From Octopus vulgaris (taxonomy: Eukaryota), in the NCBI GenBank assembly GCA_951406725.2, contig OX597823.1, positions 15,128,001-15,192,000 of the forward strand: 64,000 nt of DNA. The letters are read 5' to 3'. Within the stretch, counting starts at the first letter, position 1, and every line of letters begins with the position of its first letter. The translations under genes were made by a program, and so were the position numbers. Under the pieces are notes generated by a model, which saw only the letters and a list, made by a program, of their open reading frames with translations, was not told where the DNA came from and made no database searches. Positions 2,089 to 40,707 of this stretch are shown here, piece by piece.

Positions 2089-2160
2089 ATTCCTGGGAAA
2101 TAATATGATTACAAATATTGAAGATGGTTCCTGGAAAGGACTCAGCAAGTTACAGAATTT
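2089..2160 (+). CDS. LRR exon 1 (FLGNNMITNIEDGSWKGLSKLQNL)
   Basis: tacag|72 nt|gtaagt, phase 2-2, LRR consensus. Confidence 0.9.
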
Positions 2161-2952
2161 GTAAGTCGGGTATATTATTCACTAACACAGTATTACATAT
2201 GTGTGTGGGGCGGGTGCGTGCGTGTGTGAGTGCGTGTGTTTGTGTGTGTGTGCCTGTGTATATGTGTGTGTGTGTGTGTGTGTGTGTGTGTGTGTGTGGT
2301 TTCACGCGCGTGTGTCTAGCAGAGACACGTCATACACTTTTAATCTGATACCGATTCTAATCGTGTTTCATACACAAATCTTTCATTCAGCCAGCACTAT
2401 ATCTTTCTCAAGATATTCCTAATTTCTTTCTTACATTCTACCCCAACCGTACACTGCCATTTAATCCTGCGGTCGCTCTCTAATCAAAGCAATAAATCTG
2501 ACATCTTTGTGCACCTGCATACCCTTTGACAATTTAAATCACCTAATTAGTCGCAGCTAATATACCATCTGACACACCAAACGCGTCTCAGTGTCATAAT
2601 AAACTATTGCGACCAGGATCTTCCCATCCGCCACCTAATCAAAGCCATAATTCCATAAAACTCAGTTATAGTTGGACACTCAAGTAGTTCTGGAAAACAA
2701 CTCTCTTTAACACTTGAAGAATATTACTTACTACTACACAGATTCACTGTACACGACCGTAAAGCACGCGAGACTATTGTCAGAAAATCAATGGACAACG
2801 CTGCAATGGAGATATCAAGCATTATCCCGTGTCCCACCATCTTTTGTTTGAGCAAGTTGCCCGGACCAAAGACACTCTTTCTCTCTGACTATTCCCGTCT
2901 TCTATAACATTTTGATATCATAAAACAGTTTTCGCTAAATAGTTAGCACAGT

Positions 2953-3295
2953 GAGAATGGGGGGACCCCCTTCGGTCATGAATGACCATGGGATTGCACC
3001 TAGAAAGTTACCTTCCGAGGTACAAGTCCGGACAAGGTTGTTATATGAAAGGCCAGCAGTCTCCCATGCATACCAGCAAGCCTTCTCTCTCCACACCACT
3101 GATGTTATCCAAGGGAACGGTAAAGACCGATACAGCTTGGCACCAGTGACGTCGCAACTACAGCTGAGTTAACTGGAGCAATGTGAATTAAAGTGTCTTG
3201 CTCAAGAACACAACACACATCCCGGTCCGGGAATCAAACTCACAACCTCACGATCGTAAGCTCGATGCTCTAACCACTGAGCCATGCGCCTTCAC
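2953..3295 (-). mobile_element. tRNA-derived SINE
   Basis: Minus strand begins gtgaaggcgcatggctcagtggttagagc (A/B boxes); flanked by agttagc(a/g)cagt TSD. Confidence 0.85.
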
Positions 3296-3695
3296 AGTTA
3301 GCGCAGTAAATATAGCAGTAACAGACACAAAACGTAACGTAAAATAAGGCTCAATAACTGGTGAAATTTGACACGCACAATAGACATAATAGATACTGAC
3401 TGTCTGACTTTATAGTGGCCTCTCATACTGCTTTATCACGTGGGAAGAGGAGTACCATTTTCACTACAACAAATCAGCATCAATATATTAATGAGGTGTG
3501 TATAATTTCCGCACATCTCCGTCTACAGACGTCCATCTACATAAATATTTTCATTAATATCAATATTTATAATGATTTCTTGTTTTGTATTAAGCTTTTC
3601 TTTTTCTTTGAGACAAATTGTTTAGGCTTAACATTTTACATTTTATCACATATCTGCTTTATATCATGTCTTGTGAACTCACTTTCATATTGCAG

Positions 3696-3764
3696 ATACC
3701 TGGAAGATAATAAAATCGACAATATAGACGGAGCTTTCAAAGGCTTGGACAATTTACATATCTT
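3696..3764 (+). CDS. LRR exon 2 (YLEDNKIDNIDGAFKGLDNLHIL)
   Basis: tgcag|69 nt|gtaagt, phase 2-2. Confidence 0.9.
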
Positions 3765-3959
3765 GTAAGTGAGCTCAGAATTGTCAACATATTTTCATTA
3801 ACATTACTTTTTACCATTTAAAATCTGTTTTCTCTCTTTCCCTCTCAGCCTTTCATTCTCTCTCTCTCTCTCCCTCTCTCTCTCTCTCTCCCTCTCTCTC
3901 TCCCTCTCTCTCTCTCTCTCTCCCTCTCTCTCTCTCTCTCTCTCTCTCTCCGTTCAGAT

Positions 3960-4380
3960 ATAGTGAAAGTATGGTCCATCTTTATCCGAGCTTTAACAAA
4001 TTGCTTCATAATGCCAAGTTTGAGAAGGAATGGAGGTAGGATAATTTCTCCCGGTTGAACTAAAGATTCTTCAACCACATTAAAAGACCCTCGAACTAAT
4101 GATCGCTCTGGCCATTCTTTGATCACCCAGTATCTTCCCTGTTTGGCCATTTTACTGAAAAACGCATGGAAATTTGGTGCGTCTACTTTGTTGCCCAAGG
4201 AGAAAATTAACCTTGTTAAAGTTCACACATATCAGCCCCTGACGATTGCAGTGCTTAATTCTCTCTGGCACTGCTTTTACCACTTCATATTTATCTGCTA
4301 TTTTTGCAGAGTGAGCAACTGGAACAGCAGCCAATATATTTTCATTATGAAGCACATAGTATTTCAAATTCTATCACATT
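3960..4380 (-). mobile_element. Chapaev3-like DNA transposase fragment; a second short piece at about 4720-4830
   Basis: Frameshifted motifs VNFLLGQQS..TKFPC and [18 protein letters not shown]; family name from recall. Confidence 0.65.
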
Positions 4381-37588: not shown

Positions 37589-39293
37589 AGTCATTATTCG
37601 TTTTTGTTTCAAGGTTTCTTGCCAATAGAGAAAGAACCGGTTTCTAACCTAGATCCAAGGCTCCTTCATTGCAATTTTAACAACATCAACATGGTATTTC
37701 TGTTTGTATGTATATATATATATATATGTATATGTATGTGTTGATTTTTTATTAGCCACAAGGGACTATACATAGATATTTTTTTTTTTAGTATATATTT
37801 CTTTATTGCCCAGAAGGGGCTAAACATAGAGGGGACAAACAAGGACAGACAAGAGGAATTAAGTCGATTACAGCGACCCCAGTGCTTACCTGGTACTTAA
37901 TTTATGGACCCCGAAAGGTTGAAAGGCAAAGTCGACCTCGGCGGAATTTGAACTCAGAACGTAACGCCAGACGAAATACGGCTACGCATTTCGCCCGGCG
38001 TGCTAACGTTTCTGCCAGCTCGCCGACTTAATATTCACAGACAACCGACACTCTCATACCGCGCGCGCTTGCACATACACACACACACACACACACACAC
38101 ACACACACACACACACACACACACACACACACACACACACACACACACACGCTCACTCATTCACCCACGCACACACGCACACACACACGTATACACATAA
38201 CACACATACACTTATCTATAGCTGCACCCCTCAATAAAAATCTCTTAGATTAAACGTAGTGATTTCATCATGCCTACATAGAGGAGAAAGTGTGCTTTTA
38301 TAAGTCAAAGCTCGTAAGAACTCAGGATGTCACTCGAATAACTCGCTAACGCATGTACTTGAAAAGCATTATCAAAACTCTCTCGTTCATTGCTTGATAA
38401 AATATAATACAACAGAGTCATTAAGAGAACCGTATTCATTTATGGAATGTTTCCGTTTCCGCTATTAACAAAGACAATATTTTGGAACTGCAGCATTTTC
38501 GATCCACGTAAGGAAAAAACCTGGAAATCCACTTAAACGCACATTTTCAGTGAGCCTTAAATATTGTCCAAAACAAAATTCTTAATAGCATAGTTGAGAC
38601 TATTAAGGCATCATAGCAAATGGTATTTTTTTAAATGTTCACTTCTTAACATACATGTTGTTTTTTTCAATTTCTATGCAAAGAGTATCATATTTTAAAT
38701 TTTATTTTTTTAAATCTGTATATAAGGAAGAATAAGTCCACAAATTATTTTGGATGAGTTATGATTTATTATGAAATTACTGATAGAAATGATAGTTACT
38801 GATAGAAAATGATAGAAAACTGGGATAACATCATGAGTAAAATATTTCGCGTTAGAAATAAGTGACAGATATCTCAGAGTACAATGAACGATGTCTAGTA
38901 AATATATATTTACTAGAAATTTCTGAATGAAAATATACGGGATAATATGTTAAGAGGTTAAAGATATAATTTGTATTATACACAGAAACATTAAATCAGA
39001 AACATTTCAGAGATAACAGTTTTTTTACATAGACGTTTTTTTTTTTTTAATATCTTTTTCATGTTCCATATTGGGTTGTAGAGGCACCACGTAAGGTCTC
39101 TGTCTTAACATATCTCAAGCAAACTACATTGATGAAACCCATTCCTTTTCTAAATAGACCGACGAGAACCTAAAGAGAAATGAAACACAATACTAGGGGC
39201 AGAGCAATTTATTTTATTTGTGTTGGCGAAACAGAAATACAGACATTTGTGAAAGTCTATTTCTTTCATTTTTTTTTTTTTTTTTCCTTTCAG

Positions 39294-39365
39294 AAATTTG
39301 AAGAACAACGAAATCAAAGAATATCAAGATGGCGCATTTTCATTTCTTTCAAGCATAATTAAAAT
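39294..39365 (+). CDS. LRR exon 15, terminal repeat (NLKNNEIKEYQDGAFSFLSSIIKI)
   Basis: Long poly-T tract cag|72 nt|gtatgt. Confidence 0.9.
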
Positions 39366-39639
39366 GTATGTTCAAGACTGCTCTTCTTTTGTTTATTACA
39401 AAATGAAAACATTTTATTTGTAAAAATAAAATTCATAAATTGAGGTAAAACTATTACAGTTATTTGTTTAATATGGAGGAGGCATCCGTTAGTCTCGCGA
39501 AACCACGTGTCTACGCCTGGTAAATCTTGCTTCGGTCTTGTTAGTAGAGCCTCATCTATTGTGATCATATAGAGACCCCTTGAGTGACAGTGTCGACTGT
39601 AATGACTGCATTTGTAGGTACTGTCCACTAGCCTCATCC

Positions 39640-40010
39640 TGGTGCTGTTTTCCCGATTCTGCAGAAAAGTTCAACCTCTTCTCTCGTCTTTAAAAACCCT
39701 TGTCTAGTAGGAATGATCATCAGTAATGTTCCCCAACTTTTCAACTTTCACATAAAGCGACTTCATGACTCTATTGCAAGCATTGTTGAAACGGAGACGG
39801 AGTCGTCCTTGTGTTGTATTACCGGATGATAGTTCATAATACAACTTGTCTTTCGTGAACTTCTCGTCTTTCATGCAGTGTATATGGCTGGCCCAGCCAG
39901 TGGAAGCGTAATTATTGCAGTAGGATGAGAAGGCCGAGGTTTTGCGCTCGAGCCAACACCGCATTACCGAAGAATGACTAGGAGTTACTTCGTCTACGCT
40001 TGGAAGTGTG
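39640..40010 (-). mobile_element. RTE-clade LINE 3' fragment
   Basis: WASHIHCMKDEKFTKDKLYYELSSGNTTQGRLRLRF resembles WxGHvxRM..R.PK..LYGEL..G.R..GRP.LR. Confidence 0.75.
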
Positions 40011-40540
40011 ACTGGTAATGGGTGCACGGAAAACAGTAGTTTCAGAGATTTTTGTGTTGTTGTTAACCCGCTACCCGATATTCTACATCTCTCTCTCTCT
40101 CTCTCTCTCTCTCTCTCTCTCTCTCTCTCTCTCTCTCTCTCTCTCTCTCTCTCTCTCTCTCTCTCTCTCTCTCTCTCTCTCTCTCTCTCTCTCTCTCTCT
40201 CTCTCTCTCTCTCTCTCTTTCTCTCTGTTTACCCTTCTTGGTAGTCAGGAAGCAAGACCATTTGTTTAGGGATTATAGCGGATCACCAAAATAGGTGATG
40301 GACTACTTTGATACCCTTTTTCTCAAAATTCAGTTTCTACTAGATTCAACTTAACTTTAAGCTCCCCTCAGACAATGCACAGCAAAAAGGCTAAAAATTA
40401 CGATAATTTCAGTTCCCATGAGGACCCAATTCACTTCACCGAAAATACAAATACATTCCAGAAAACCACAAGCGTCAACACTTTTAAGCATCTAAACAAA
40501 GTTTTCAATCGATCTTATACAAATTTTATTGGAATTACAG

Positions 40541-40707
40541 TGACTTGAGCGGCAATAAAGACATGGTCTGTGGATGTCATTTACCAAAACTTATCGAGCG
40601 TATAAGTGAAACTGACAACAGGAGTGTGACTGTCTTGGGCGACTGTATAGGGGCTGGCACCAACCCAATCAAGTTTACCCATACAGAGAAACCTTCGCAC
40701 TGTATTA
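40541..40707 (+). CDS. LRR C-terminal cap (LRRCT) exon
   Basis: tacag|167 nt|gtaagt, phase 2-1; DLSGNKDMVCGCHLPKLIERISETDNRSVTVLGDCIGAGTNPIKFTHTEKPSHCI has the CxC...C...C pattern. Confidence 0.88.

Follow-up and report, generated by a model that had tools for sequence, protein, structure and literature searches.

Likely genomic diversification of one-repeat LRR exons in an octopus adhesion GPCR gene

A 64,000-nucleotide stretch of the Octopus vulgaris genome (GenBank assembly GCA_951406725.2, contig OX597823.1, positions 15,128,001 to 15,192,000 of the forward strand; hereafter “the window”) holds part of a gene for a G protein-coupled receptor (GPCR) of the adhesion class, whose extracellular arm is a series of leucine-rich repeats (LRRs) encoded by one exon each. 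We assign a probability of about 0.6 to the following reading: the arm gains and loses one-repeat exons in the genome, its concave codons change faster than neutral, it likely tracks a changing ligand, and exon skipping probably adds a few isoforms, in exons 9 to 14 only. Diversification is likely mostly genomic, by exon duplication, and free combinatorial splicing over fifteen exons, the possibility raised by an earlier sequence-only reading of this DNA, is not supported. Coordinates below are window positions, and features lie on the plus strand unless stated otherwise.

Exons were found by a splice-aware scan, a profile search, and direct reading of the sequence. Fifteen LRR exons lie within 2089-39365, followed by an LRRCT exon (phase 2 to 1) at 40541-40707. 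Every LRR exon is bounded by AG and GT and is of phase 2-2; fourteen are 72 nt long and one is 69 nt. An nhmmer search returned 14 of the 15 at E<1e-19, against a profile built from those same 14 and thus circular, and the fifteenth at E 0.004. As an independent check, 14 of the 15 were found unchanged, to the letter, in named O. vulgaris proteins; the exception is exon 10, which none of them contains. The array opens with exon 1 (2089-2160), present in all 10 O. vulgaris and O. sinensis protein models, and continues with exon 2 (3696-3764, the 69-nt exon), exon 3 (4452-4523), exon 4 (7033-7104), and exon 5 (8151-8222). The next nine exons are of two types, A and B: 6A (10296-10367), 7B (14159-14230), 8A (17447-17518), 9B (20580-20651), 10A (24542-24613), 11B (25030-25101), 12A (25643-25714), 13B (26802-26873), and 14A (28918-28989). 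Exon 15 (39294-39365), the family-conserved last repeat, is present in all 13 models available from O. vulgaris, O. sinensis, and O. bimaculoides.

The exon geometry described by the sequence-only reading largely stands. All 15 exons are symmetric in phase and multiples of 3, they end in TT, CT, or AT, and any skip among them gives a hydrophobic junction codon and never a stop, since 120 of the 120 forward junction codons among 16 exons (15 LRR and LRRCT) encode L, I, F, or M. The claim that exons start with A, G, or T needs a correction: 14 start with A and one with G, and T starts the LRRCT exon only. The intron does split the LxxLxLxxN strand. Specifically, each strand in the AlphaFold model of the O. 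bimaculoides orthologue is x3-L4-x5, centered on the split codon, so that skipping would pair the x3 of one exon with the x5 of a different one. The junction codons are safe because of the intron's position, within the codon for the second, conserved Leu of LxxLxLxxN; only TA or TG ends there could give a stop.

The same geometry was found at paralogous loci. We chose 11 of the places in the O. vulgaris genome that match the LRRCT exon and examined 20-40 kb upstream of each, using a scan that detects 72-nt repeats only and is bounded by the length of the stretch. Ten of the 11 stretches gave LRR matches, 1 to 11 each and 61 in total; the remaining one (C8, 40 kb) gave no LRR match in this 72-nt-repeat scan. 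Fifty-eight of the 61 matches are 72-nt phase 2-2 exons, with ends CT (26), TT (22), and AT (10). The junction rule is thus ordinary, and we rejected it as evidence of a diversifier because it is automatic and family-wide; here we depart from the sequence-only reading, which had taken the geometry to point to a potential diversification cassette.

The evidence for genomic turnover comes from the array itself and from its orthologues and paralogues. Exons 6 to 14 alternate between types A and B and have common intron flanks, which points to a B+A two-exon unit copied in tandem; by this pattern, the block evidently arose by tandem duplication of that unit. Its most similar members are exons 11 and 13 (94% identical) and exons 12 and 14 (96%). 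A remnant of a further B unit lies at 34183-37739, where the upstream flank (34183-34340) and the downstream flank (37562-37739) are kept and the exon is lost. Repeat numbers also differ among orthologues, the counts being lower bounds as they were taken from annotated proteins: the longest O. sinensis model has 18 LRR units versus 16 exons here (including one upstream of the window), with four exon-11/13-type repeats versus two here, and 12 are counted in the O. bimaculoides model, whose N-terminus is cut. Several paralogues carry one- or two-exon duplications of their own. The suggestion that recent expansion and unequal crossover could diversify the array is supported by the repeated two-exon unit, the dead copy, the differing repeat numbers in orthologues and paralogues, and the selection described below, with unequal crossover as the presumed route of gain and loss. 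An assembly artefact was considered for exons 11-14 and rejected, since the flanks are 87-93% identical and similar arrays are annotated in two other species.

Several further rearrangements were observed in and around the array. An inverted pair of 422 bp, 98% identical, at 33727-34148 and 38162-38583 brackets the dead B-unit remnant; these are its sole two places in the O. vulgaris genome, and it is a local inverted duplication rather than a common transposon. Intron 9 is a rearrangement hotspot within the variable block: at 20914-24274 it contains a 354-bp unit in 3.3 tandem copies adjoining a 99% inverted copy, plus a 631-bp inverted pair at 90%. A palindromic element resembling a miniature inverted-repeat transposable element lies behind A exons 6, 8, 12, and 14 (10441-10717, 17588-17973, 25781-26208, and 29055-29325). 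Introns 7 and 8 contain what we take, by eye, to be a decayed long interspersed nuclear element (about 14600-16600, minus strand) and a mariner element (19100-20380, minus strand). At 395-520 lies a decayed duplicate of the leader/LRRNT exon that covers the 3′ portion of it and includes the donor; the donor and first intron bases are identical to those of the working copy upstream. This copy, together with the 75% likeness of LRR exon 1 to LRR exon 0 (the LRR exon upstream of the window), indicates that the front end of the gene was once duplicated. In two groups of paralogous loci (L025-L028 and L045-L048), runs of 3 exons are identical over 72 nt and about 205 flanking bases, which may reflect ongoing exon amplification or assembly over-expansion.

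To measure selection, we defined the concave class beforehand as positions x2, x3, x5, x7, x8, and x10 and compared exon pairs of at least 72% identity on spanning trees, excluding the 69-nt exon and, for the codon model, 4 identical paralogue pairs. Simple counts gave a concave ratio of nonsynonymous to synonymous differences (pN/pS) of 1.7 in this gene (p 0.036) and 1.8 in paralogues (p 1e-4). The codon model gave a concave omega of 3.9-4.2 for this gene (8 pairs, p 2e-5 to 6e-5) versus 0.08 for the core, and of 2.8-3.0 for paralogues (24 pairs, p about 1e-7) versus a core value of 0.3. Relative to intron flanks (108/918), concave codon positions 1+2 of this gene differ about three times as often (29/84; 7 of 8 pairs with alignable flanks); the corresponding figures in paralogues are 79/312 and 397/4258 (26 of 28 pairs). 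When every possible six-position subset (8008 in all) was ranked, the concave set came 279th for this gene and first for the paralogues. The concave-face signal is thus strong when the family is considered and moderate when this gene is taken by itself. These results bear directly on neutral repeat turnover, in which exon number drifts and the arm is a spacer with an unconstrained surface. The dead exons and the many local rearrangements would suit such a process, as would the tolerance of surface residues to change, yet a concave omega significantly above 1 and above other surface positions, and the first rank of the concave set in paralogues, make it highly improbable.

Position x7 of the concave face was also seen to differ between sequencing runs. 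Runs X15 and X19 replace Ala with Asp in exon 6 (10296-10367) and Asp with Gln in exon 7 (14159-14230), and run X18 has Glu at x7 of exon 7, which suggests binding-face polymorphism.

The annotated isoforms vary in one part of the array only. In the six O. vulgaris models, exon 8 is the last exon common to all before the variable block, and the order before exon 15 is 8-11-14, 8-13-14, 8-9-11-14, 8-11-12-13-14 (twice), and 8-11-12. Thus, exon 9 is in one of the six models, exon 10 in none, exons 12 and 13 in three each, and exons 11 and 14 in five each. There are 5 distinct LRR patterns among these 6 models, 4 among 4 in O. sinensis, and 3 among 3 in O. bimaculoides. None of the 10 O. vulgaris and O. 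sinensis models lacks any of exons 0-8 or exon 15, and all 13 models of the three species keep exon 15 and every older exon covered, the variation being confined to the young block. The splicing half of the sequence-only reading is therefore weaker than its crossover half, the annotated variation falling in exons 9-14 and not among the older exons or exon 15; a single isoform with an invariant exon number, which that reading had named as its refutation, is seen neither in the annotations nor in contigs guessed to be RNA.

Those contigs come from 4 sequencing runs whose RNA status was guessed, and they were aligned to 24880-29100, a stretch that leaves exons 8-10 outside. Runs X15 and X19 (organism A, two studies) each yield a single contig, ~4 kb long, in which a GT..AG joint connects a B exon with exon 14 and the sequence continues into exon 15. 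Run X18 (organism B) has B-to-12 and 13-to-14 joints, and the contigs of run X10 over 24880-29100 showed no exon-exon joint. Judging from the absence of further aligned pieces, with exons 8-10 outside the aligned stretch, the X15/X19 form would have about 12 repeats. Its B exon differs from exon 11 at 4 letters and matches neither exon 9 nor exon 13 of the assembly; these differences, together with the other residues in exons 6 and 7, indicate that the animals carry other alleles, so the short form may be genomic.

This last point leads to the view that all variation is genomic, with one transcript per haplotype and with annotated “isoforms” that are reads from other alleles, or from near-identical exons, mapped onto the reference. 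We consider this possible, though clearly the less probable account. It draws on the restriction of variation to exons that are 85-96% alike, on O. vulgaris model P0002, which joins halves of copies 1 and 2 of the downstream LU domain, and on the B exon of X15/X19 that is absent from the assembly, with its accompanying replacement variants in exons 6 and 7. However, O. vulgaris and O. sinensis both have annotated junctions of the 8-to-11 and 8-to-13 types, the duplication unit is broken by B-to-B junctions (9-to-11), exon 10 is in 0 of 6 models even though its frame is open, and single repeats also distinguish six models of a paralogue in O. sinensis. That paralogue (P0031, P0062-P0066; XP_036369232-38), represented by short models without the seven-transmembrane (7TM) part, has at least 6 annotated isoforms that differ by single LRR units; several of its units share 3′ ends, and mis-mapping is possible there.

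At the other extreme stands a Dscam-like cassette, the strong form of the sequence-only reading, in which combinatorial splicing would give a different binding surface per cell or condition. Every skip keeps the frame, and several skip patterns are annotated in three species and a paralogue. In addition, exons 13-14 or exons 9-12 could be looped out by inverted copies in the introns, and both patterns are annotated. These are 2 of the 5 loop-outs predicted from the element behind A exons; the other three (7-8, 7-12, and 9-14) are not annotated, and with microsatellites allowed, 34 intron pairs match as inverted repeats. Exons 0-8 and 15 are constant in all 10 O. vulgaris and O. sinensis models, however, exons are used additively rather than mutually exclusively, and X15 and X19 each show one unbroken contig, suggesting one dominant form. 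Moreover, 62 of the 73 donors tallied are GTAAGT or GTGAGT. We therefore regard such a cassette as distinctly unlikely. Exon 10 has the sole GTAAAT donor among the 73 exons, with a TG tract beginning 17 nt after it, and its frame is open; it is likely repressed or decaying. By analogy with known cases of UG-binding proteins, repression could be exerted by proteins of this kind.

Our preferred reading, genomic gain and loss of repeats with a few isoforms from the young block, can be put as a mechanism. Symmetric phase 2-2 exons would let duplications and deletions in the germ line keep the frame, and selection would then drive the concave residues of the copies apart. The newest copies would be loosely included, giving a handful of isoforms as in CD97, and each gain, loss, or skip would make a new hybrid strand, with x3 from one exon and x5 from the next. 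Cleavage at the GPS and signaling by a tethered agonist are established for the adhesion GPCR class. The octopus receptor would accordingly bind a putative ligand on its concave face and signal through GPS cleavage, tethered agonist, and 7TM domain. As to the ligand, we lean slightly toward cell-cell recognition in arm nerve tissue over immune sensing, because expression of the O. bimaculoides orthologue is highest in the axial nerve cord. The selection fits host-microbe conflict equally well. The expression shares tabulated for this gene, Ocbimv22016967m, are 0.25 in axial nerve cord, 0.18 in posterior salivary gland, 0.12 in subesophageal brain, 0.12 in viscera, 0.08 in skin, and 0.05 in sucker, in a table that has no haemocyte or gill column (PMC6408891).

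Several observations weigh against this reading. Other non-core positions of this gene also evolve fast (omega 1.8-1.9), and among six-position subsets the concave set ranks only 279 of 8008. The likelihood is a composite one on spanning-tree pairs that share exons and so are non-independent, gene conversion is not modeled, and local alignment understates intron divergence. Ritschard et al. found no single site under selection in these groups (PMC6408891). The short form in X15/X19 is equally explained by a shorter allele, and the joints come from contigs rather than reads, in data that are “RNA” by guess, so that production of two isoforms by one animal is conjectural. Finally, the exons of the young block are nearly identical, and what the annotations show could equally be produced by mis-mapping or by shorter alleles.

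The gene is an adhesion GPCR with the domain order leader-LRR-LU-SEA-like-HormR-GPS-7TM. The LRRCT exon matches six O. vulgaris proteins (CAI9728716-21) and O. sinensis LOC115215701. In O. vulgaris protein P0006, Pfam finds LRRNT, LRR, GPS (PF01825, E 4e-14), and 7tm_2 (PF00002, E 4.5e-29); the exons of this secretin-like 7TM domain map downstream of the window. The GPS motif beside the first transmembrane helix is intact (C-x-C-x-H-L-T-S-F), and the ectodomain is long and modular (LRRNT-LRR-LRRCT-LU-SEA-like-HormR-like). Mapping of P0006 places the leader exon (working copy from L014:7287) and the 16th LRR exon, exon 0 (L014:8684-8755), upstream of the window and the GAIN/GPS and 7TM exons beyond its end, to about +95,200, for a span of ~98 kb. 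Between them in the window lie LU (three-finger-like) copy 1 (42011-46540; exons 42011-42096 and 46360-46540), LU copy 2 (47016-49543; exons 47016-47101 and 49363-49543), a SEA-like domain of ferredoxin fold (52575-58744; exons 52575-52654, 57163-57215, and 58593-58744), and the first HormR-like exon (61235-61346), the LU and SEA-like domains being placed by mapping and fold model. In the structure model of the stalk (mean pLDDT 72), a three-finger-like domain is seen along with a SEA-like domain of ferredoxin fold and a HormR-like part, and the model's only Foldseek match at E<0.001 is the GPR126/ADGRG6 ectodomain (6v55, E 6.8e-6). The LU part resembles Prod1 (2jve; Z 7.4, root-mean-square deviation 2.5, 71 aligned); the Z scores behind the SEA and LU labels are middling (8.0 and 7.4), and the full-length AlphaFold model is poor outside the LRR part (mean pLDDT 63).

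The two-exon LU block is duplicated at 41689-49637 with an identity of up to 99.7%. It may be a very recent duplication, a haplotype artefact, or an artefact of assembly. O. vulgaris models have one or two LU domains, those of O. sinensis and O. bimaculoides one, and P0002 fuses half of copy 1 with half of copy 2.

Proteins of the three species form one clade with 100/100 support, in a tree of 23 rows, 10 of them different. Of 10 matches looked up among 38 representatives, 8 are named from Octopus or Argonauta and one is a weak sea-cucumber match. The O. bimaculoides orthologue A0A0L8HDZ7 (Ocbimv22016967m) is listed in octopus group 3 (Ritschard et al. 2019, PMC6408891), and through this orthologue the gene is assigned to the group-3 adhesion GPCR expansion. 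In the O. vulgaris genome, the LU exon has at least 64 matches, 62 of them outside the window, and the LRRCT exon at least 36. LU and LRRCT matches lie on G000 C29, C30, C31, C10, C9, C8, and C2, in far more places than the published group-3 count; some of these places may be pseudogenes or receptor-less forms. The LRRCT matches at G000:C29:20838233 and C29:21611658 lie inside long open frames (451 and 496 aa). One member of the family in O. bimaculoides, P0015, ends in a Death-like tail, which may be a link to immune-type signaling; a Death domain has been reported for one group-3 gene (PMC6408891).

A large receptor family in which the binding arm changes as exons are gained and lost, with selection on the binding face, points to a changing ligand. 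Octopuses are not known to have adaptive-immune receptors. One can picture an octopod recognition system coupled to GPCRs, with ~60 paralogues, polymorphic selected LRR arrays, and cell- or challenge-specific splicing that together form a Dscam/VLR-like repertoire for arm neuronal identity or non-self recognition; this we consider speculative and rather unlikely. The locus is a good test case: its orthologue is clear in three species, isoforms have been annotated and tissue expression published, and a single amplicon can cover the six candidate cassette exons. Our literature search turned up nothing published on variation of LRR exons in the adhesion GPCRs of cephalopods; subscription papers and supplements may contain it. 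The octopus family (PMC6408891), LU-bearing mollusc GPCRs (PMC13719153), and shuffling, selected, and spliced LRR exons in brown algae (PMC11378527, PMC3341825) are already known; the locus adds a three-species comparison that confines variation to a young block.

Among known systems, the closest relatives are the group-3 octopus adhesion GPCRs, for which GPS, 7TM, LRR, and branch-level positive selection have been reported (Ritschard et al. 2019, PMC6408891). That group comprised 21-22 sequences over three species, and the main text has no occurrence of “splic” (PMC6408891). The present analysis differs in finding at least 64 matches to the LU exon within a single genome, exons of one repeat each, change in copy number, and selection on the concave face. 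LU-domain 7TM proteins are described for molluscs, arthropods, and starfish; the combination of LU and GPCR is reported in molluscs, in a figure whose domain legend also includes LRR and GPS (PMC13719153). Relative to the available text of that work, the exon-level and selection analysis is what the octopus locus adds (PMC13719153). Unlike the ADGRA2/3 type of LRR adhesion GPCRs, the octopus gene has LU and ferredoxin-fold domains between LRR and HormR. In the ADGRA2/3 type, an Ig domain stands there, and GPR126 also has other N-terminal domains than the octopus receptor. The SEA-HormR-GAIN stalk is like that of GPR126/ADGRG6 (PDB 6v55).

Splicing of receptor ectodomains is familiar in this class: human adhesion GPCRs average 24 transcript variants (PMC11039983), and skipping of ectodomain EGF repeats in CD97/ADGRE5 gives a few isoforms with distinct binding (PMC9101421). 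The EGF domains of CD97 are independent units; in the octopus gene, skipping would instead re-pair the two halves of an LRR strand, in repeats that are both young and subject to selection. Arthropod Dscam1 has mutually exclusive exon clusters, and the lamprey VLR is an incomplete germline gene filled somatically from cassettes. In contrast to Dscam1, no mutual exclusion is seen in the octopus models, exons 11-14 occurring together in 2 of the 6 O. vulgaris models at the level of annotation; in contrast to the VLR, the octopus germline gene is complete and spliced, with contigs running from exon 14 to exon 15, and no sign of somatic assembly was seen in it. What the octopus gene shares with both, as these are described in two sources, is an array of duplicated modules that varies at the binding face (PMC11378527; PMC3341825).

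The brown-algal ROCO genes come closest in exon structure. Each of their LRRs is described as encoded by a single 72-nt phase-2 exon, such exons are born and lost, the concave face is under positive selection, and splice variants are annotated (Zambounis et al. 2012, PMC3341825; Teng et al. 2024, PMC11378527), and the phase-2 LRR layout is likewise described for gonadotropin receptor genes (Teng et al. 2024, PMC11378527). The octopus gene has one 72-nt phase-2 exon per repeat, gained and lost, and diversifying selection on the concave face, which by permutation is weaker for this gene alone. Variant LRR exon sets are annotated in the octopus gene and seen in contigs, and in both cases ROCO-like splicing is inseparable from alleles. 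Unlike the ROCO proteins, which are LRR-GTPases, the octopus gene product is a 7TM receptor with LU, SEA-like, and GPS parts and without a ROC-COR GTPase; it works like a ROCO array but is not a ROCO.

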